The notes under the pieces: model-generated
Databases searched by the model: none
What the model saw: the letters and a program-made list of their open reading frames with translations, nothing else
Told to the model about the DNA's origin: nothing
Shown: piece after piece, positions 1,287 through 64,000 of the stretch
How the letters are laid out: each line of letters starts with the position of its first letter
Numbering within the stretch: the stretch's first letter is position 1
Source of the DNA: Amoebidium appalachense
Taxonomy: Eukaryota > Protista > Ichthyosporea
Length of the DNA stretch: 64,000 nucleotides
Direction of reading: 5' to 3'
Assembly (NCBI GenBank): GCA_963693365.1
Contig: CAVNZM010000007.1
Span: forward strand, 8,429,962-8,493,961
Program-made: the position numbers and the translations under genes

Positions 1287-1488
1287 TTCACTCCCCTCAC
1301 TCCCTCTATCTCTTCTTACTCACTCACCATCCTCTCTCCCATGCACATGCGGTCTCTCTTAACCGCTTTCCTACTTTTCTTCCCTGGGACTTCATTCTTT
1401 TCAGCTGGTGTGGTATGTTAGCTAGGGAATTATCGACTTAGGTATCGACGGGGGGGCCTAGAAGCCCCGTCAAATGAGTTCCTCATTT

Positions 1489-1630
1489 TGCACACTGCAC
1501 AGGTTGCTGATGTTGCATACCTGAATGTTTGCTTTTCCTGTGTCCTTCACCGTGTTTCTCATCGTGTTCTTGTACTTCGTACCATGTTCCGCTTTTTAAC
1601 CCCCCTTTTTTCGTACTTTATGACGCATTC

Positions 1631-1632
<2 letters not shown>
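1489..1632 (+). mobile_element. Truncated copy of the poly(C)-anchored 452-bp family, with a second 3' end stacked on it
   Basis: gctgatgttgcatacctgaatgtttgc…gtacttcgtaccatgttccgc matches the monomer 3' part. It is followed by tcgtactttatgacgcattcaa and a C-run (1633-1662). Confidence 0.8.
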
Positions 1633-2206: not shown

Positions 2207-3263
2207 CCCCTTTTATCTCCCGATCGCGATTCCCCCCCCCCCCTGTGTGTGTTGTGTGTATGTGTGTGTGTGTTTCCCTTTTATCTCCCGATCCCCCCCC
2301 CCCCCCCCCCCCCCCCCCCCACCACCACCACCACCACCACCACCAACCACCAAAAAAAAAAAAAAAAAAAAGATTAAAGAAAACACAGGCACACATACCG
2401 CAAAATTCTGGTTTATTGAAGGTACTTTATAGAAAGTCTAGTCCCCGGTTCTGTGTCTATTGACACAAAAACCCCCATTTACAAAGAAATCTGAGCTATT
2501 CCTCCTCCGTCGTGGCAGTGGTACTGCCATGTGTGTACATATGCCCCGTGATGTAGTGCATGCACGTGTGTGCGCGAACACACCGGGCACACACCACGAT
2601 TACCACTCACGTGCACCATTATGACATGTGTACCTACACTCAACCACCCACGTACACGCACACACACACACACACTCGTGACACACACGCGCGCGCACAC
2701 ACAGAAAATAACCCTACAGACCTAGGCCTGCACGTGCACGTGTACACAGTCTAATTAACTGGAAAAGCAAAAAACGGTTGGCTTTGTGTGGCAAAGGCTT
2801 TGCCACAGTGCACCTCCCCACCGCCTCCCACGGTGCTTCTTACACACTTGTATGTGCACCAGTCTTTACACAACACTGCCCACTGAGACGTCAGGCCCCG
2901 AGCAGATGGGTAACCATGGCCACTATAACCCCCTCCCCCCCCTCCTCCTAGGCCTTTCCCACCCCACCGCCCCCATATATACGAGGCATACTCTTTATGT
3001 GTGATGAGTTGCAATTGTCCGTCGTGAATGTGTACTTCCTACCGTAGGCTGTTACTCTTTCTATACACCACCCCCTCTCTCCCAACCTACACACATACAC
3101 AAACAACCACACTCACCCACCATGGTATTTTCCACACATATTTGCACACGTTACCGCTTACTCTTACTTCTTGGTCATGCTTGTGAATTTCGGTTTTTGG
3201 ACACAGACGGCATTATGACGTATAAAGAAGACAGTGGCTACATGAAGCTGTCCTTTTCGTAGC
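1950..3263 (+). CDS. Possible 3' end of an unidentified spliced gene (small exons); product unknown
   Basis: AG/GT-bounded unique islands among microsatellites: ~1951-1979 (VSELGFVDK), ~2863-2909 (LYTTLPTETSGPEQM) and a terminal ~3208-3263 (DGIMTYKEDSGYMKLSFS*). The last two join in phase; the upstream joins are unresolved. Confidence 0.25.
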
Positions 3264-13551: not shown

Positions 13552-16529
13552 ATGGACGGTATGTGTGTTCGGTCATGTTAAAATCTTGTCAAGACCCCCC
13601 CTCCCCCCACACTGCCTTGACCTTAGACATGTTTTAGTTGATTAGTTAGACTCCTTCAGCTCTCTTTCTGTGAGTGCCCATATAAGCTATGGGCTTTGAA
13701 GCATTTAAAAAGCATTTAGTAGTGAAAGGAATTATGAGGCTCAAAAAAGCAAACGGAGTATCGTTTTTGGTAAGTTGTTTGACTGCGGGGAAGGGGTGGT
13801 GGGGCTGCTTGGTCGTTTGTGCTCGACATAACCATACCGTTACAACAGGTGTTTGCATACATGTTTGAGCCGAGTTTGGCGTTTTGGGGCCTGGCGGACT
13901 TTGAGAGACGAAGCACGAGCATAGAGGATGAAGGAGAGGAGGGGTATCTTAGTCGCTTTTCGAACGCCAAGCATCATGTTGAGACCTGGGCTGTTGAGTG
14001 AAAGAGCAAGAGTGCGGAGTGGTGGGGAGGTGTGGAGCCAAACGAAAAGAGAGAGAATGTGGAGAGGAATAGAGTGGGCAACTGCAGCTTTTACAATAAA
14101 GAGTGTTAGCAATGCCTTTACACCAGATGTTTGTTTCATTGTGTCAAGGCAGTTGAGGGGTGGTCTATCTTCTGTCTTGTAAGACAGGTGCTGCTCCTCA
14201 GCCTGCTTAGCCGCCTCCCCCCCCCCCCCTCCCCCCTCCCCTCCCCGTCTCACAGAAAAAAAGTAAAAAGAAAGATGAAGAAAGTAAAAGGAAAGGAATG
14301 GTAAAAAAAAGAAAAAGGAAAAAAGAAGGGAATGGAAAAGTCCATAAATAAAAAGGGGTAAGAGAGATTGAATATCCGAATTCTACTGCTGGTTAGAAGT
14401 TGGACATGCACACGAAGCTAGCGTATAGAAGGGTTTGAGAGAAAGGGAGCCTGATCGGGCTGCAGTTTTGGGTGTGTTTGTTTTGTTCGTGTCTGCGTTC
14501 ATCCTTGCATATCAGTGCACAACCAGGGGAGTGTGCTGCTACGAAACATCTGCTAGCTTGACATCACCGCTCTAATAGTTCTTAGTGTGGAATGCTTGAG
14601 ACTGTTACTGCTTTTAGCACTCAGGATGTGCATTTTGGAGTGTGTGTGTTTCTTTTAAGTTCTTTTCGGTGCCTGCAAAGGCATGTGCTCGAGAGAAGAC
14701 AGCCACGATGCTAGCCAAAGGCCAGACTGGCAGCCAGCAAGCATTGCTTATGTGTAGTAATGGTGATGCTTTTTGTGAAGTTGCACGGGTTGAACACTGA
14801 CACCCAGTTGCACCCCTACCATATTTGCCTCAACATATCGAGTAGACTATCGGCGCTACGGCAACGGTGAGCAATCCCCCCCTTTCCCCCCGAAAAAAGA
14901 AAAAGAACTATATTCAAACACAAACAAGCAAACGCCATTAAGGTATCTGCTCTTACCTTGTGCCATATTCGTATGGGTGTGTAGGGCGTTTCATTGGTGC
15001 GTTAGATGATTCCTCTCTCCTTTCCTTGTGCCTCTTTGATTATACACTCCGGTAACTCCCCCCCCCCCCCCCCCCCCCTCCCCCGGCCCAGGGAAAAAAA
15101 GGAAACCGCCCACCCACCCCCTCAAACATGCCTATATGCAGGCACATGCACGTTGGAGACAGCAATCCCTGTTCCAGAGCTCCTCGATTTGCCAGTATCC
15201 GCCCGAGTGTTTTTTTGGCATGTGTGGTGAACATCATGCAGAGCACTTCTTTCTTGGCAATTGAAAATGCTGGGCTTTGTGGGGAGGCTCCCGTATGCAA
15301 CAGCAAACCTTCAGAAGGAAAAAAGTGCTATAGCTGATTTCCCCCTCGTTTTTAGCTCCCCATAGTATATTTATTTACCCATTTTTAAGCCGATTTCTTA
15401 CGTTTCGTGCCCACAGATCGGGACGACCGTTATCGCGACAGCGGTCGGGATAGATTCCGTGACGACAGGGGAAGCTATCGCGACGATCGGGGGGGGTTAC
15501 CGCGACGATCGGGGGGGCTATCGCGACGATAGGGGGGGATACCGTGGAGACAGTTACCGTGATGGCGGGTACCGTGGATTCGGTGGCGGTGGGTCACGCT
15601 CAGGGTATGTGTGCTTGTGTGTCTCTCCCCCTCCCCCCCCCCCCCTCCTCTCTCCCCCCCTCACCCCCAACACACACACACACACACACACATGGAATTA
15701 TACTTGGGGTGCACGTGTTCATCGTCTGGATTGCTCCCCCCCCCCTCCCCCCCCCCCCCCCCGGTGGGTCCCCCCTGAGGATGGGCTCTGCTTATTATAC
15801 ATACTCTTTATGTATGGCTTGCATTCTGCATCGTGTTATCCGTTTGTTCTTGTGTACTTCGTACTTTATGACGCATTCAAATCCCCCCCTCCTCCCCCCC
15901 CCCCCCCCCCCCTCCCCCCTATCCTCCCCTTCTTCTACACCCGTGGCTTTCCTTGTGCTTTCTTGGTTGTGTGTGCGTGTGTATCACGAGGTGTACATGC
16001 GTGTGTTGGGTTTGGTAGTTGCGGTCATTGTGGCTCACCTCCTCGATCTCCTCTCTCTCTCTCTTTCCCTCTCTCTCTCTGTCTCCCTCTCTCTCTCTCC
16101 CTCTCTCTCTCCCTCTCTTCTCCCTCTCCCTCATTCCTCCCTCCCCCATTCTCTTTTTCTGGGTGTGCGGAAAGACTCGTTTGTGTGTGTGTGTGGGAGG
16201 GAGGGGGGTGGATGCTTTCTCTCTCTCTGTGCCCTGACTATGGAATGCATGCAGGTACGGTGGTGTCTCTTCGGCCCCGCCACGCCGTCGGTAAATCCCC
16301 CCCCCCCCCCCCCCCCCCCCCCCGGGGCGTTTCCCTACCCTTAGTGGTTCGTATTGAGGTGAATGTGTTGAAATCTGGGTACTGTGGATGAGTTGCACAA
16401 TGGGTTTGTGTGGTCCTTTGTGAATGTGTACATCGTATTTTGTAACACATTCTAAAGTTGCCCTCCCTCTGCCGCTTCACCCTTGCTACAGAAAGCGAAA
16501 ACAAGACCCTGTTGACAGGGGATACCCCC

Positions 16530-16560
<31 letters not shown>

Positions 16561-16667
16561 AAAAAAAAAAAAAAAGATACAATAAATTAAAATAAAAAAG
16601 AAAAGTGCTAGCAGTATGTTACCCGTTATGAATGTGTACTTCGCTCTCTATGACACGTTCTAACTAC

Positions 16668-16704
<37 letters not shown>

Positions 16705-17612
16705 ACCATCTTTGAGGATGGGCTCTGCGTATGATCTATACTCAGCGTGCTTTGCATTGTCTTGTCCACCACGCATGTGACTACGTAACCCCCCCCCCCC
16801 TTTCCCATTCTCTCGTCCCACACACACACCACTTTCATGTGCTCCGCTCACTCATATCCCCCCTGTTCCTTTCCATTTGCAGTGGTGACCGGTTCCACAA
16901 CGAAGATGCAAAGGAGAAGTCGTCGACTCTCTTTGTTGGCGGCATCCCCTACAGCTTCCGTGAGAGCGACATGGAGCAGCTTTTTGAGAAGTTCGGACGT
17001 GTGGAAAAGACGGTGATTGGGGTGGATAGGAGGACTGGACGCCCCAAAGGGTATGTTTTGAAGAGGGTTTTGCACGTGTGTGTATGTGTGTGTGTGTGTT
17101 TGGTGGGGGGAGGGGGACGGGGGGGGGGGGGGGGGGCTGGTGTGGGTGGGTGTGTGTGTTTGGGGGGGGGGGGGGGGGGGGTGTATATGTGTGTTTGTGT
17201 GTTTGTGATAAATTGTTTGGAAGGGCAAGGACCCCGTTTCCTGCGTGTTTTGATGGTTGTGTCTAGGGTGGGTGGTTTGTGCTTGCTAAACCCGTTGAGC
17301 ATGTCTCCCTTTCCCTCTCCGCTCCCAATTTCGAGCTCGAGCCCGTTGTTGACACTCCGCACACGTACACACACAGAAATACACTCCACGTGTACTCGCA
17401 CGCTTGCGTACACGTGCACGTACACACACGTACACACACGTACACGTACACATACAGGTTTGGGTTTGTGACGTTTGAAGATCGTCGGGATGCCGAGGAT
17501 GCCTATGACCGCATGCAGAACTACGAGCTGGAGGGCCGCCGTCTGCGTCTGGACTTTGACGTTGGTCTCGAGCAGAAACAGCGCATGATCAGCAAATGGT
17601 GAATACTATCCC

Positions 17613-17655
<43 letters not shown>

Positions 17656-18314
17656 CACACACACCCTTGCCGCCGCCACCACACAACACAACAAACATAT
17701 TTACTCAATTTGTTGTCTTTAAGGCGCTGAACCATCCCCCCCCCCCCACCACCACCACCACCACCACCACCACCACCACCACCCACCCACCCACCCACCC
17801 AAAAAAAGGCATCTTCTCCGTGGGCACCAACACCACCACCCAAATACTCTCTTCCCAACCTGCCCCCCCCTCCCCCCCCCCCCCCCCCAGTCTTCTTTCA
17901 GAGGTGTCCTTTCAGGACAGACCACTGTGTGGAGACCGCTTTACTTCCATGCAACCGGGCATGGTTGCTCTGTGTCGTGCATCTGTAAGCACATAAACAT
18001 TTTTCGCTGCACTGCATTAGTTTGCACACACATATTCACCGTTTTGCTCACCTTGCTTGCATAAGCAACCCTGCTCGTCTTTGATCAAGACGGGTTGACC
18101 CTCCCGAGTTCAGTTGATGCTGCTGTCTGAGTTGGAGAGTCATATATACGCGGGCTAAGGGGTCGAAACTCAGGCGCAATTGATGACTTGGGCCCTCCCT
18201 GAGGATGGGCTCTGCTTGTGACGCATACTGTGCGCATGGCTATGTTGCATACTTGAACGTTTGCCTTTGCATGTGTCCTTCGTGTATGCGTACTTCGTAC
18301 CGTGTTCCGCATTC

Positions 18315-18356
<42 letters not shown>

Positions 18357-22039: not shown

Positions 22040-22071
<32 letters not shown>

Positions 22072-23799
22072 ATATGAATGTGGAACACGGACGGTACGAA
22101 GTAACAAAACACGATTAGAAGCATGGTGCAGGACATATGCAAAGGCAAACATTCAAGCATGAAACATCACCAATGTGCACAGTATGTGTCATAAGCTGAG
22201 CCCATTTTCAGGGAGGGCCCAAGTCATCAATTGACTCTGAGTTTCGGCCCCTGAGCCCACGTATATACGACTCTCCAACTCAGACAGCAGCATCAACTAA
22301 ACTTGGGAGGGCCAGCCCGTCTTGATCAAAGACAAGCAGGGTTGCTTACGCAAGCAAGGTGAGCAAAACGGTGAAGATGTGTAAAGGGGAGGGGGGAAGG
22401 GGGGGGGGGGGGGGGGGGGGGGTTTGAATGCGGAACACAGTACAAAGTACGCATACACGATGAGAAGCATGGTGCAGGACACATGCAAAGGCAAACATTC
22501 AAGTATGCAACATCAGCCATGCGCACAGTATGCGTCATAAGCAGAGCCCATCCTCAGGGAGGGCCCAAGTCATCAATTGCGTCTGAGTTTCGACCCCTTA
22601 GCCCGCGTATATACGACGCTCCAACTCAAACAGCAGCATCAACTGAACTTGGGTGGGTCAACCCGTCTTGATCAAAGACGAGCAGGGTTGCTTATGCAAG
22701 CAAGGTGAGCAGAACGGTGAAGATGTGTGTGCAAACTAATGCAGTGCAGCGAAAAACGCGTATGTGCTTACAGATGCACGACACAGAGCAACCATGCCCG
22801 GTTGCATGGAAGTAAAGATGTCTCCACACAGTGGTCTGTCCTGAAAGGACACCTCTGAAAGAAGACAGGGGGGGTTTGAATGCGGAACACAGTACAAAGT
22901 ACGCATACACGATGAGAAGCATGGTGCAGGACACATGCAAAGGCAAACATTCAAGTATGCAACATCAGCCATGCGCACAGTATGCGTCATAAGCAGAGCC
23001 CATCCTCAGGGAGGGCCCAAGTCATCAATTGCGTCTGAGTTTCGACCCCTTAGCCCGCGTATATACGACGCTCCAACTCAAACAGCAGCATCAACTGAAC
23101 TTGGGTGGGTCAACCCGTCTTGATCAAAGACGAGCAGGGTTGCTTATGCAAGCAAGGTGAGCAGAACGGTGAAGATGTGTGTGCAAACTAATGCAGTGCA
23201 GCGAAAAACGCGTATGTGCTTACAGATGCACGACACAGAGCAACCATGCCCGGTTGCATGGAAGTAAAGATGTCTCCACACAGTGGTCTGTCCTGAAAGG
23301 ACACCTCTGAAAGAAGACAGGGGGGGTTTGAATGCGGAACACAGTACAAAGTACGCATACACGATGAGAAGCATGGTGCAGGACACATGCAAAGGCAAAC
23401 ATTCAAGTATGCAACATCAGCCATGCGCACAGTATGCGTCATAAGCAGAGCCCATCCTCAGGGAGGGGGGGGGGGGGGGGCACGAGCAAGAACTGAGTGA
23501 CAAACAAGGCAACACTCACAGCGCCACGTACCTACCGATGTACCAATCCACAAACACAAGCGTGATTCCGGGAGGGAAAAAAAAAACAAAAAAAAAAAAA
23601 AAAAAAAAACACCACCCACGCAAGATCATCCCCCCCCCCCCCCCCCCCACCCCCCCCACACACACACACACACTCACCACCACCTACCCACCCAACAAAT
23701 CCCTACCCACACCACCCCAACCCACCCACCCACAGCCCAATAAGTTCCAGAAAACGAAGGAAAGGGCAGGGGTTATGCACATGGGGTGTGGATTTGCTG

Positions 23800-23893: not shown

Positions 23894-23925
<32 letters not shown>

Positions 23926-24399
23926 TGAATGCGTCAAAAAGTACGAAGTACACAAGAACAAACGGATAACACGATGCAGAATGCAAGCCATACATAAAGA
24001 GTATGCATAATAAGCAGGAGGGGGGGGGGGGGGGGGGGGAGGGGGGAAGGGGGAAGGGGGGCAAAGACGCACCATGCTCCCGGAAGTGGTCCTTCAGGTC
24101 CTGCCAAGAAACACTGTAGTTGAGCTGCAGAGGGCATGCGTCAGTTTACTAACAGATCCCCCCCCCCCCCCCCCCCCCCCCCAAAAAAAAACAACAAAAC
24201 ACACACACACACACAAAAAAAAAAAAAAGAAAAAAAAAAAGGGGAAAAAAATAAAAAGAAAGAAAGAAAGAAAGAAAGAAAAAAGCGCGTCCACAGGCAC
24301 CCGCCCACACCCACCCCTTGTTTTGGTGGACAGCAATCAACAAATCAACAACGTACAAAATACACACACGCACATACACCTTTCGTGCGAGTAAACCCC

Positions 24400-31950: not shown

Positions 31951-32154
31951 TCACTCGTCGTGGCACTGGCCCTGGTGTACCACCTTGACGTTTGCTCCAC
32001 TTGCACAGGTGCGCTGTTTCATTACACACTCGTTGGAGTAGGTTTGGCCGTCAGATGCACAGACAGGCTCCCAGACCATGGGGCAGACGATGTCGCAGTC
32101 TCTTGCTGTTGCTGCCGTGGCAAGAGCAGCGGCGAAGGCAAGGATAAATTTCAT
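31951..32154 (-). CDS. Secreted single-domain Kazal-type serine protease inhibitor (67 aa)
   Basis: Signal peptide MKFILAFAAALATAATA and a six-Cys Kazal pattern CDIVCPMVWEPVCASDGQTYSNECVMKQRTC…VVHQGQC. Predicted P1 = Met. Intronless. Confidence 0.92.
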   Translation of the reverse strand: MKFILAFAAALATAATARDCDIVCPMVWEPVCASDGQTYSNECVMKQRTCASGANVKVVHQGQCHDE

Positions 32155-32796
32155 TTTGACTCCGTGATATTCAGTCAAAGAATAGGTGGTGGCTATGTCA
32201 AGTTTTGGAGGGAATAATCTGATTTTGATGTTCTGGTCGGAACCTCTTGGTGGCAACTGGCCTTCAAAAGAGAACGGGCCTTGCTTGAAAAGAAAAAAAA
32301 AGGATCCACCGCAATCACGAGGCGGAAGATGATTGGAGCAGCACGCACCACTGGTGCGTCTCAAAACCCCCTAGCTGTTAAATTTGATATTACTTGGCGG
32401 GGCGGAAAGACTGGATTATCTACGTCGTGAGCGCTCGCTTTGATACACAGTTATGACCAAATATCAAAAAGTGTTTTTAGACTCTTTATCGAAATATAAA
32501 TAATGAAGAAACAATGTAAAAACGATATTTAACACGTTCTTTAACGAAACCTACATTATCTATTTTACCAAAGTGCACAACCAGGTGGGTGTTCATAGGA
32601 TCCGGAAAACCTAGTTTAGGAGCCTTCTCTGTATACGTCATCGCGGCGGCCCGGCGGTCCCAGCCAGTACGTTGAGAGTACTGTGGGCTGTCGTCAACCT
32701 AGGGCTGGCAGTTTGGTCGTCCTTCTCCGGGACCATTTAGGCCACGAGTAAAGAACCTTTTTTTTGACCCGCATGGAAACGAACAACCCCCCCCCC

Positions 32797-37465: not shown

Positions 37466-38578
37466 ATGCTGCCTCAATCACTTGTGTCCTGGGTCATATT
37501 CTGTCTGGCTGCCCTCACAGTCGTTTCAACGGTGAGCTCAGCCCCCACCGCAACACAAACGCCTCCTCTCAATGTGACCATACAAGTCTACCGCCACGGG
37601 CGTGCTTGCTACAGCAGCAACATCGAACCTTGTATGAACCAGACAGCCCTGAAAACAAACCCCCTGTGCTATCAAAACCCAACCAACACACGTGACTCCA
37701 TCCTCACAGACTACGGTGTTAAGGCATCCAAAAACACGGCCAAGTGGCTGAAACGCGCTTGGGAAAAAGGGTTCACCAAACGTCCTGATGTTGTCTTTAC
37801 CTCTCCCCTGCTGCGCGCAACGGAGACCGGCTTCTACACTTTCCCCCAGCTCACCATCTATCAGGCTCCATACCTCGCCGAGTGCGATTACGGTGCAAGA
37901 ACCAACGACACGATCCGTCGCCTGCCAGGTGACCCTTCGGGGACACCCATTACTCCCGCAGAGCAGCTTGAAGCTCTAAGAATAGTTACGGACGATGAGG
38001 AGGACCTTGCACGCATCAACTATTCTTATGTTCAGCAGTGGGGTGACGTCAACTGTAGTGTGCCGGATTTCATCACCACGGGCGAGCCACGGTGTGTTGC
38101 TGGAACGTGGAAGACCTTTCTCGACTGGTTGGCAAATGTGCTCGTGCAAAACCCTCCGACCCCGGAGCTGGCGCAGAAGGTGTTGAACGGTGAAGATATT
38201 ACTGTTGCGGTGGTGACGCATGGAAACTACATTGGAGAGATGGTGTTTGAGAGAGACTACGAGGATTGGGACGGGGCTCTTAACAACCAAGGGTACCAGA
38301 TGGTTCACCTGCTCGATGTAGAGAAGAAAACTTTGACTCGGGCAGACGGCAAAGCGGGACCTTGGCCTGCCGCGTTTGGCGCTCCCGGGGCAACGAAGAT
38401 ATGTCAGGAGAGTAAGGGTGGGTTCCTGGTAATGAATGATGACTATGATGGTGTGATGGATTTTATCGGCCGATGCGTAAAGAGAGAGCCGGAGCTGTAC
38501 AGTAAAGAATTTGTAAATGCATGCTTTGGAAACTGGGCTGGCATGGTGGATGACCGCGATGATTACTGGAAGAACTGA
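37466..38578 (+). CDS. Secreted histidine phosphatase (phosphoglycerate mutase-like, branch 1), 370 aa
   Basis: Hydrophobic signal peptide; catalytic motifs VYRHG, LTDYG, VFTSPLLRATET, YLAE, VVTHG. Intronless; several NxT/S sequons. Confidence 0.9.
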   Translation: MLPQSLVSWVIFCLAALTVVSTVSSAPTATQTPPLNVTIQVYRHGRACYSSNIEPCMNQTALKTNPLCYQNPTNTRDSILTDYGVKASKNTAKWLKRAWEKGFTKRPDVVFTSPLLRATETGFYTFPQLTIYQAPYLAECDYGARTNDTIRRLPGDPSGTPITPAEQLEALRIVTDDEEDLARINYSYVQQWGDVNCSVPDFITTGEPRCVAGTWKTFLDWLANVLVQNPPTPELAQKVLNGEDITVAVVTHGNYIGEMVFERDYEDWDGALNNQGYQMVHLLDVEKKTLTRADGKAGPWPAAFGAPGATKICQESKGGFLVMNDDYDGVMDFIGRCVKREPELYSKEFVNACFGNWAGMVDDRDDYWKN

Positions 38579-39414: not shown

Positions 39415-39600
39415 AAGCCATACATGCACACGAGGGGCAGTGCTCCCACCGTTTCCCAAAATATAAACCGTATATACCATCCCAGTAAGTGCATCATAAG
39501 ATGTAGGCAAAACGTAATTATTGCCATCATCACGATGTTCACAGTATTGTCGCCAGAAATTAACAATGCACTGTAGAGGGGAAGAAGGCCGGTTTATTTT

Positions 39601-39751
39601 GTGCCACATCGTGCCTGTGGGTTATCCTTTACGGGAAATCTGATCATATAAGCCTAAACAAGTACTTAAGTAGGATTGTGTTTAAGACTGTTCAACGAAC
39701 ACCACACACAATGGTATTCATACACGTTCATGTATTTCACTATCTTTACCT

Positions 39752-39795
<44 letters not shown>

Positions 39796-40120
39796 CGCCC
39801 GCCCCACGCATGCACCTACCCAATGCACACAACACCCCCCATTCGGGCTAGTGTGAACACACATACACAGACACACGATAGCTAACAAAACCACAATTCT
39901 GCCAAAAATCCCAAAACAATCCAGAACTAAATCATAATCCTTCACAGATGATCTCACACGGATACAGTTTCGTGCCACATCGTGCCTGTGGGTTATTCTA
40001 CGGGGAATCTGATAATATAAACCTAAACAAGTACTTAAGTAGGATTGTGTTTAAGACTGTCGAACGAACACCACACACAATGGTATTCATACACGTTCAT
40101 GTATTTCACTATCTTTACCA

Positions 40121-40168
<48 letters not shown>

Positions 40169-40346
40169 CGCCCGCCCCACGCATGCACCTACCCAATGCA
40201 CATAACACCCCTCATTCGGGCTAGTGTGAACACACACACACACAGACACACGATAGCTAACAAAACCACAATTCTGCCAAAAATCCCAAAACAATCCAGA
40301 ACTAAATCATAATCCTTCACAGATGATCTCACACGGATACAGTTTC
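39601..40346. repeat. Tandem duplication of a ~371-375-bp unit downstream of the transporter stop codon
   Basis: gtgccacatcgtgcctgtgggttat…cacacggatacagtttc at 39601-39971 and 39972-40346. Few differences; each unit has a central C-run. Confidence 0.93.
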
Positions 40347-40451
40347 GCTCATACCACACCCACACCGACACCTACGTGAAAATACAAGTTTCTAATCCAT
40401 TATGATACATGAAAAATGTAATTGATACCATACTTTCCAATCAACACGCTA

Positions 40452-43504: not shown

Positions 43505-43917
43505 TGTGTGTGTGAGAGGGGGGGACGTGCTTGTGTTTGCGCGGGTGTGTGGGTAGGTGTGTGCGCATGTGTGTGCGTGTGCTTGCCTGTATGTGCTTGT
43601 ATGCTTGTATGTGTGTTGAGTGTGTGCATGTGTATTGTGTGAGTGTGTGCATGCGTGCAAAATAGTGAACGAGTCAATAAGTGCGCGCGGGTATGCATGT
43701 GCGCTTGGGTGAGTGGGTACGGGGGTAGCATGCGTCACAGTGCATGAATTATACATTTCTGACGGACAACACAAGGGGGGAGGGGGGGGTTTTGAATGCG
43801 TCAAAAAGTACGAAGTACACAAGAACAAACGGATAACACGATGCAGAATGCAAGCCATACATAAAGAGTATGCATAATAAGCAGAGCCCATCCTCAGGGG
43901 GGGGCCCACGTCATCCA

Positions 43918-43957
<40 letters not shown>

Positions 43958-45002: not shown

Positions 45003-46053
45003 GTTAGAATAGGTTACAGAGTACACGTCACTGACAGCACAACACAAGGCAGATTCTGCAGGAGGGGCAATACACGGAGTGCAATCTTACTTTCTTTATT
45101 TCTTTCTTTCTTTGTCTATCTTTATTTCTTTTCTTTTCTTTTTCTTTCTTTCTTTCTTTCTTTCTTTTTTTTTTTTTTTTTTTTTTTTTTGGGGGGGGGG
45201 GGGGGGGGAGGGAGGAGAAGAGTCCACCTACCGCCTGACTTTGCCAGCTGAAGAAGAAGAGATGTGGCGACTGCGGGCGCCCTCGCCCCCCTCGTGGCTT
45301 GACCGGCGGGAAAACGTGCCTGTCCCCTCGTCCCCTGATGTGTCATCTGCAATCCAGCCCAGTGCCGCCTGTGTGCCCATTCCCTGTAAGTGCCATTACA
45401 CACACGCACTGCCTTGCTTATTGCCTCAAGAACCCCCCCCCCCCCCCCCCCCCCCCCCCGTTTCTCTCCGCCTGATCCCACCCCACACACCCACCACCTA
45501 CCCCATCCGGGATAAGAATCCTTTTGTGACAACTCTAATGCATTCCTCATCTCTCATTCCCTCTCCTTTTTGAGTCAGTGGCACCCCGGGGAGAAGGGGA
45601 GGGGGAGGGGGGGGGGGGGGGGGTTTATCGCATAATTCTACCAGCAAATGTTTACAAAATAACAGCGCCAGATGGTAAGTGCAGATGGCAACTTCAATTC
45701 GCACAGTATTGTAGCTAACTTTTTTCTCACAGGCCTCAACCAAGTGCCGTGTGGTCGCCCATACTGCATTTGGTAACGGACCTTTGAATAGCCTTTTAAA
45801 ATCCCCTCCACCCTCCCCCCCCCCCCCCCCCCCCCCCCCCCTCCCCCCCACACACTCGTCCTTTCCCCTTCCCTTCCTTCCCATGCCCATCTTTTCACCT
45901 CTCCCTTGCCACCAGACAACCACAAAGAAGACTGTCCGACACATGGATTCAGTCTTACTCCCCCCACTCCCCCCTCCCCCCCACACGTTTTCCCTTAAGT
46001 ATATTTCTGCCACGACTTCATCAGCCAACTAAGTACTGTACACCTCATGGCAA

Positions 46054-50866: not shown

Positions 50867-64000
<13,134 letters not shown>

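Follow-up and report, generated by a model that had tools for sequence, protein, structure and literature searches.

The last intron of an RRM gene (Tra2-like by its family nickname) is interrupted at 17889..18315 by a non-coding sequence wedged between two runs of C. What this sequence is, how it came to lie within poly(C) and whether its RNA might have an activity of its own are the questions raised by this locus. They are addressed here within the 64-kb stretch of DNA that contains it (64,000 nucleotides, hereafter the window). The sequence belongs to a dispersed family that is probably a non-autonomous (C)n-targeting retroelement working like the Penelope-like elements (PLEs) of the Naiad and Chlamys type. 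Its young copies carry a rearranged hammerhead-like motif. The published sources cited below are represented by excerpts, and what is said of them applies to the excerpted text.

A dispersed family with a 445-bp repeat unit

The first-pass annotation had counted at least 11 loci for this element. All 11 were recovered with BLAST and nhmmer, and an iterated profile applied to the homopolymer-masked 64-kb window returned 24 matches at E≤1, equivalent to about 20 loci. Six of the 24 are weak (E above 0.001); in the reversed-window control, two weak matches appeared in round one and none in the last two rounds. The 452-bp length originally ascribed to the element stands as the period of a tandem array (22416-23467, 2.3 copies), the repeat unit itself being resolved as 445 bp plus a C7 spacer. 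Both whole units of the array are identical (452/452). As proposed, the unit contains no ORF of note (the longest starting with ATG has 84 codons) and neither TIR nor poly(A) tail; AATAAA is likewise absent.

The description of the copies as a single family had to be abandoned, at least two subfamilies being present. Subfamily A comprises the copies at 17889, 22071 and 1436 and the tandem, the three best being 89-100% identical to the tandem unit. Subfamily B is found at 15765, 23924, 43791 and 1610; its members at 23924 and 43791 match at 94/94 positions though 20 kb apart. Older copies are 62-84% identical to the subfamily A monomer. The median copy length in the window is 100 bp. The copies and their immediate surroundings are:

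17889..18315 (+): full-length subfamily A copy with a 17-bp deletion near the 3′ end, 96% identical to the tandem monomer; last intron of the Tra2-like RRM gene, sense
17863..17888 (+): upstream C-run with one T, putative left part of the target
18316..18356 (+): C41 run following the copy, either target or tail or both
22423..23465 (-): partial tandem, a 5′-truncated unit (from position 307) followed by two identical full units
23320-23326 and 22868-22874 (-): C7 spacers of the tandem, with a complete SGC motif in each full unit
22071..22385 (-): older 5′-truncated A copy (89%), core decayed to CUGAAAA, its C-run common with the tandem
15763..15881 (+): short subfamily B copy with C-runs on both sides
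23924..24019 (-): short subfamily B copy, the 94/94 match to 43791
43790..43918 (-): short subfamily B copy in an intron of the amino-acid transporter gene, sense
1436..1632 (+): decayed A copy, a short C/T run, the last 23 bp of a B copy, then C30
1921..1990 (+): fragment of a second long subfamily (block S region), 3′ part lost; from alignment, not an HMM match
2970..3063 (+): old copy, from the profile
16342..16455 (+): old copy, from the profile
16609..16788 (+): two old short copies with C34 between them
56498..56608 (+): old copy within an intron of Sec5, flanked by C-runs
57615..57831 (+): old longer copy, its three blocks all decayed, in which C and T tracts have expanded
60755..60858 (+): old copy, its 3′ end no longer intact
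61672..61816 (+): two old 3′ fragments, the second weak (E 0.003)
62800..62841 (+): weak block C fragment (E 0.004)
43727..43774 (-): 3′ fragment, weakly matched (E 0.002)
45003..45055 (-): weak 3′ fragment (E 0.07) adjoining a C-run

The annotation had named a snoRNA, a TIR transposon and a Helitron as identities that would contradict its reading. None of them emerged: there is no Rfam match, no TIR and no CTRR 3′ end with an A|T target. Rfam gave nothing at E≤10 on the tandem (931 bp), and elsewhere only low-complexity matches of miRNA type, none reaching the gathering score. A C/D-box snoRNA, an HDV-like ribozyme and a 5S-derived SINE, considered on account of short motifs, were dropped, each lacking Rfam support and having the wrong spacing or order. 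The element has no tRNA match, and a tRNA-derived SINE was discarded because the 5′ end shows no tRNA-like head bearing A and B boxes. Exact element motifs are absent from the viral contigs and metagenome contigs scanned.

Fixed 3′ ends, truncated 5′ ends and the C-run target

Eleven of the 14 copies aligned to the monomer reach positions 441-445, in agreement with the fixed 3′ end seen initially; good copies end in CA, CAAA or TAA before the C-run. At the other end, the proposed variability holds with respect to truncation but not to even raggedness, as 8 of the 14 copies start at monomer positions 287-308. This cluster coincides with a C-rich hairpin. The full set of starts in these 14 copies, approximate for the decayed ones, is about 1, 137, 231, 287, 291, 298, 299, 300, 302, 307, 308, 344, 347 and 391.

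Junctions with poly(C) were scored at 20 loci as a run of six or more C within 8 nt of the end, the ends being set by eye. The enrichment claimed for the 3′ end is present, but the 5′ end is equally enriched (13/20 each, against a background of 4.5% of positions; G-run control, 0/20). The presence of C-runs at both ends indicates that the element splits, or inserts into, a C-run, rather than only carrying a C tail. In contigs of public sequencing runs, compared with the C-runs skipped, none of the 15 joints listed of 52 bridges an insertion site as an empty site would.

The window is rich in such runs. Homopolymers of at least 10 include 82 C-runs and 71 G-runs (about 3.5 kb, or 5%) versus 17 A-runs and 14 T-runs, with the proviso that homopolymer lengths in the assembly may be unreliable. 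The idea that the family seeds these tracts did not survive: only 18 of the 153 C/G runs of that length are in contact with a copy that was detected, and the family therefore does not explain the homopolymers of this genome. Several C-runs of at least 10 are preceded by AA with no copy detected upstream (1881, 11301, 24396, 32787, 41299, 45433 and 63713 on the + strand; 53394 and 45623 on the - strand). These orphan runs could be the ends of other (C)n-targeting families, or chance. Two two-copy tandem duplications, at 39597-40347 (369 bp, 95%) and 625-960 (158 bp, 89%), have a C-run inside each unit and are unrelated to the element by BLAST.

Host genes and sense-only orientation

Predicted gene models, built from exons read by eye and Pfam, delineate four intron-rich genes in the window. 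Sec5 and the Tra2-like RRM gene lie on the + strand, an amino-acid transporter gene and another RRM gene on the - strand. All 17 intragenic matches in the window are intronic and in sense to the host gene, a regularity overlooked in the first-pass annotation. C-rich tracts themselves are 64% sense (67/105). With a gene-by-gene correction for the tracts, the bias has P values of 0.0007 for all matches, 0.007 for the 13 strong ones and 0.013 when neighbouring matches are merged to 11.

Our preferred explanation is that insertion itself is biased through a link with transcription, since sense copies with a cutting RNA are those that selection should remove. Splice-signal asymmetry was considered as a cause; donor-like motifs occur on both strands and did not decide the matter. 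The orientation is opposite to the antisense bias reported for human intronic elements (excerpts of PMC3517506 and PMC5717806), and may be informative about the way in which the nickase of a PLE encounters DNA under transcription.

Other features of the copies and their surroundings were noted in passing. The head of the 17889 monomer (17890..17901, +) is a putative splice-acceptor-like sequence (pyrimidines followed by CAG). Older copies at 1977, 16356 and 57637 (+) contain AAG/GAG-GTGA(A/T)T, about 190-200 nt from the 3′ end in those that retain this end. This donor-like motif is identical to the donor of two host introns, and subfamily A lacks it at that place; in published (C)n Chlamys elements, AGGT(A/G)AG, likewise donor-like, occurs at a distance of 190-300 nt from the end (PMC8557442, as excerpted).

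Two intronless ORFs also lie in the window. One, at 37466-38578 (+) within an intron-rich region, encodes 370 amino acids with a hydrophobic N-terminus; it has a weak histidine-phosphatase match (E 2e-4) and no homologue was found for it. The other, at 31954-32160 (-), is small and encodes a hydrophobic leader followed by a Kazal domain (E 2e-14). At the start of Sec5 (50870-52010, +), an IPT/TIG domain is split over two exons, the first two Sec5 exons matching adjoining stretches of the N-terminal domain in solved Sec5 structures (weakly, E 0.03 and 0.007). Sec5 with an N-terminal IPT domain is presumably an animal-like layout, which hints at a relative of animals. Protein homology searches pointed to no particular host, their one match, at 25%, being named hypothetical protein, and exact look-ups of two proteins came back empty.

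A hammerhead-like motif in S-G-C order

A second feature had escaped the first-pass annotation: young copies contain the letters of a rearranged hammerhead, CUGAGGA, GAAA and a GUU site. In the young units these stand in non-circular S-G-C order, with CUGAGGA 34 nt downstream of GAAA. In the 17889 copy the parts are:

18097..18101 (+): predicted extra strand GACCC, pairing with GGGUC just 5′ of GAAA as a stand-in for stem II
18127..18137 (+): block S, with a stem III strand, the GUU triplet and the stem I strand GGAG
between 18133 and 18134 (+): predicted cut in block S
18160..18173 (+): block G, with the stem II arm GGGUC, GAAA (18165-18168) and the stem III arm
18190..18212 (+): block C, with a stem I strand and the core CUGAGGA (18199-18205) within what is predicted to be a I-II interaction helix of 5-6 bp; the start of most short copies

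A descriptor search allowing any block order, run on both strands of the 64 kb with thresholds set after the motif had been seen, gave only three matches, one in the 17889 copy and one in each whole unit of the tandem; their order is S-G-C throughout. The helices consist of a stem III of 9 bp from A15.1-U16.1, a stem I of 4 bp and a I-II helix of 6 bp. When the monomer was shuffled with dinucleotide composition preserved, 4 of 5000 sequences passed loose thresholds and 0 of 5000 passed strict ones. The unit contains no canonical hammerhead of types I-III, inasmuch as only the SGC order passes the descriptor and Rfam reports none.

Blocks C and G form no direct stem II (0 pairs), and the motif is therefore filed as SGC-like, not as a member of type SGC. 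The arm before GAAA is instead predicted to pair with the upstream GACCC (5 bp), which would give the usual G-C pair at 11.1. An A-U to G-C double change is found in the GACCC/GGGUC helix of the 22071 copy, whose hammerhead core is decayed; with three sequences and one double change, 167 of 500 shuffles score as high in covariation. A competing nested fold that hides the core strands fits equally well (159/500 shuffles). Additional double changes are suggested between subfamilies, as read from separate contig ends, and loose contig ends together with alignment identify the blocks as the parts kept between subfamilies. The folding z of the whole monomer is only -1.5. The predicted cut, at monomer position 245/246, is marked neither by a cluster of 5′ ends among the 14 copies nor by a step in contig depth.

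Modelled in this way, the motif may work as in a carrier of a type-SGC hammerhead, though it falls short on direct stem II. We lean narrowly toward self-cleavage at the predicted site; RNA circles of the unit would be a rather more doubtful outcome.

The family in public sequencing runs

Words of the element are present in 20 of the 24 public runs listed. Two of these, X1 and X3, show zero differences to the unique DNA of the window and may be where it comes from, and a third, X7, has 6 differences in 483 letters in one contig. The summed contig depth on the element in X1 is 0.65-2.5 million, versus about 24-43 on unique contigs. Summed contig depth is no copy number; assuming 31-letter words, we infer a floor of roughly 600 heads and 2,500 3′ parts in X1. 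From the 3′ part to the head, contig depth drops 3.9-fold in X1 and 15-fold in X7, a gradient due in part to other subfamilies that share only the 3′ part, with its blocks. Loose contig ends reveal a second long subfamily in which the blocks at 22661-22705 and 22527-22574 are conserved but the sequence separating them is not; its members appear to include the B copies and the 1921-1990 fragment. Tail plus run is joined to a 5′-truncated copy in 4 among the 15 joints listed of 40.

No run containing element words is recorded as RNA; X19 and X20, from one sample, are RNA by guess. Contigs of these two runs cover 29 of 29 bins, which, without a silent control stretch, is not used as evidence of expression, and no spliced joint, expected if an intron crossed the unit boundary as in Naiad/Chlamys elements, occurs among the 15 joints listed of 40. 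One X19 contig spans the boundary between two units and extends more than 31 letters into either of them; being RNA by guess, it may also derive from DNA.

Two further contigs stand apart. In X20, a 514-nt contig (depth 213) falls on 22470-22529 and has in common with the element only about the last 110 nt of the latter; its other 405 nt are unmatched. This contig may belong to a different family, or else to the autonomous partner, as its 3′ end. X15, in which little else matches the window, contributes a single 405-nt contig (depth 14) that departs from 17899-18279 at 10 letters, either a low-copy relative or carried-over DNA.

Proposed mechanism and alternative explanations

Among 476 stop-to-stop ORFs of 70 amino acids or more in the window, 159 are complex, and Pfam searches with 150 of these 159 found neither RT nor GIY-YIG, and likewise no transposase or Rep-helicase. 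The original proposal of a non-autonomous PLE- or SINE-like family is supported on the PLE side: the element is PLE-like in its 5′ truncation, its partial tandem and its C-run target.

The mechanism we propose takes as its starting point the anatomy, the target, the truncation gradient, the tandem and the motif described above. RT and a GIY-YIG nickase would be supplied by an unseen PLE of the Naiad/Chlamys clade, whose existence we infer. As in TPRT and in PLE biology, the nickase would open a C/G run on its G strand and so release a G-rich 3′ end. This end would pair with the C7 that follows …CAUUCAAA in the RNA and prime reverse transcription; priming on C7 would fix the 3′ end. Synthesis would mostly break off at 100-160 nt, in many cases where block C has its C-rich hairpin, and the product would be joined to the left part of the run. 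Longer products would cross the C7 spacer into the next unit, which would lead to exact monomers with C on both sides or to tandems of n units plus a fraction, the units being identical. Tandem or read-through transcripts would be cleaved at GUU by the hammerhead-like fold, giving pieces one unit long that might then form circles like those of retrozymes. A circular or tandem template would explain both the identical units and the identical spacer. Cutting of a linear RNA at GUU would concentrate 5′ ends at position 246; as there is no such peak, the template, if the ribozyme cuts, is more likely a circle.

In its boldest version, the scheme has a four-strand, non-circularly permuted hammerhead cutting tandems into circularizing 452-nt units, and an RT that copies the circle from C7 onto nicked poly(G), in telomerase-like manner, only where the G-run is the transcribed template, so that all copies are sense. 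We regard this combination as unlikely. Such an active retrozyme, if real, would unite a ribozyme of Naiad type with a target of Chlamys type in one element, in a probable unicellular relative of animals.

The strongest competitor has the same PLE-derived passenger carry a fold that does not cut, either a structure for RT binding or packaging or a dead relic, with tandems arising by read-through from a tandem master. We consider it a real possibility, if not the probable one. It accommodates the lack of a direct stem II, the equally well kept nested alternative that sequesters the core strands, the absence of a 5′-end peak at the cut site and the tolerance of sense copies by introns. The junction-crossing X19 contig fits tandem RNA and does not bear on cutting. 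Against a non-cutting fold, all core letters and GUU are in register with three helices, the blocks are kept between subfamilies, and the tails of two Naiads, in the excerpted supplement discussed below, can be read with the same wiring.

Derivation from a microsatellite-targeting non-LTR LINE (Tx1-, RLE- or RTE-type) preferring (C)n, as a SINE-like element or by internal deletion, is distinctly improbable. Microsatellite-specific LINEs exist, all TPRT gives copies truncated at 5′ and fixed at 3′, and two motifs of the unit loosely resemble Pol III A and B boxes. But these box-like motifs lie mid-unit, where a T5 run would halt Pol III before the whole unit was transcribed, there is no tRNA or Rfam match, and both the truncated-then-full tandems and the A(A)-Cn end match Chlamys as far as the excerpts describe it. 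Least credible is a rolling-circle DNA element (Helitron/Helentron- or Replitron-like) or a satellite dispersed by C-run recombination: rolling-circle replication and unequal exchange also produce one fixed end and identical head-to-tail units, such as the 100% identical units of the tandem, yet neither end has a CTRR terminus of the kind that Helitrons have, a TIR or a terminal repeat, the target is C|C in place of the A|T or T|T of Helitrons, orientation is strict to both run and gene, and an RNA-type motif is present.

Comparison with known systems

The preferred reading, a PLE-dependent passenger, finds its closest counterparts in Chlamys. What the first-pass annotation says of the PLE literature is correct: (C)n targeting and head-to-tail Chlamys are described in PMC8557442 and (C)n intronic insertions in PMC9977147 (both as excerpted). 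Craig et al. 2021 report 5′ truncation, tandems of truncated-then-full units, (C)n targets for many Chlamys and head-to-tail non-autonomous Chlamys such as MRC1 (PMC8557442). Insertions of Chlamys-9/N4 have a median of 128 bp, are all intronic and lie in (C)n (PMC9977147). The Chlamydomonas reinhardtii elements (MRC1, and Chlamys-N4_cRei with Chlamys-9_cRei) thus resemble the present one in their (C)n target without visible TSD, their short 5′-truncated intronic insertions, their multicopy head-to-tail units (PMC8557442, PMC9977147 and PMC9940879), their A(A)-Cn 3′ end and their lack of a canonical hammerhead. In the excerpted supplement of PMC8557442, 12 of 13 (C)n Chlamys consensuses end in A-C4..6 and 8 of 13 in AA-C4..6, record identity being taken from file order. 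The element differs from Chlamys in its SGC-order hammerhead-like motif and in a host whose Sec5 has an N-terminal IPT domain of animal type. Its sense-only bias finds no mention for Chlamys in the excerpted parts of PMC8557442, PMC9977147 and PMC9940879.

Since (C)n-targeting non-autonomous PLEs are already known from Chlamydomonas, the novelty lies in the RNA motif. Canonical hammerheads are absent from Naiads and most Chlamys (PMC8557442, as excerpted), and SGC hammerheads are reported from environmental RNA only; here an SGC-like core is genomic. Our literature search found no description of a poly(C) element of this kind or of an SGC hammerhead in a Penelope-like element. The supplements of PMC10085705 and bioRxiv 10.64898/2026.07.22.740005, which extend beyond the excerpts, may bear on whether such wiring is already described. 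The young, very abundant 452-bp unit offers a short, clean substrate for the question of a rewired ribozyme in the PLE clade.

Five motifs of the element were looked for in published Naiad/Chlamys consensuses and none occurs at a matching place. The letters around GAAA have three matches in the excerpted supplement of PMC8557442, two of which fall in Naiad tails. The two octopus tails, Naiad_Obim and Naiad_Ovul by file order, can be read by eye in S-G-C order, with an upstream GACACC strand (6 pairs) for the arm before GAAA, a stem III of 5 pairs, a stem I of 6 pairs and CUGAUGA followed by U; that of Naiad_Ovul is labelled HHR_half_core (PMC8557442 File S1). In the third match, a Chlamys tail, a local hairpin precedes GAAA and the passage contains no core. 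The term CCCTGATGA has four matches in the excerpted supplement, with nothing comparable in the passages. As far as these excerpts go, the Naiad tails share with the element a stem II arm supplied by an extra strand, a G-C pair before GAAA, U after the core and the letters GTCGAAAC. They differ in the linker between stem I and the stem II arm (1-2 nt, vs about 21 nt here), and the Naiads themselves are autonomous, animal and (TA)n-targeting.

Hammerheads of type SGC (HRIMA-1 and variants) have in common with the element the S-G-C order, intact CUGANGA and GAAA, A15.1-U16.1, both stem I and stem III and a I-II helix in which the flanks of block C are joined (Eckert et al. 2023, PMC10085705, as excerpted). 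In these hammerheads blocks C and G pair directly as stem II, and all four stems are needed in SGC-3; in the element this stem has 0 pairs and a fourth strand would be needed. According to the same excerpts, type-SGC hammerheads were found in metatranscriptomes and none in the genomes of known organisms, whereas the element, with its predicted motif, is genomic and high-copy.

Non-LTR retrozymes, proposed to be non-autonomous PLE derivatives, resemble the element in being non-coding tandem units with one hammerhead per unit (bioRxiv 10.64898/2026.07.22.740005, as excerpted). Their hammerheads are of type I (CGS) and they are reported to be excluded from introns. The element, in which the descriptor detects no type I hammerhead, has an SGC-like core, targets C-runs and resides in introns in sense.
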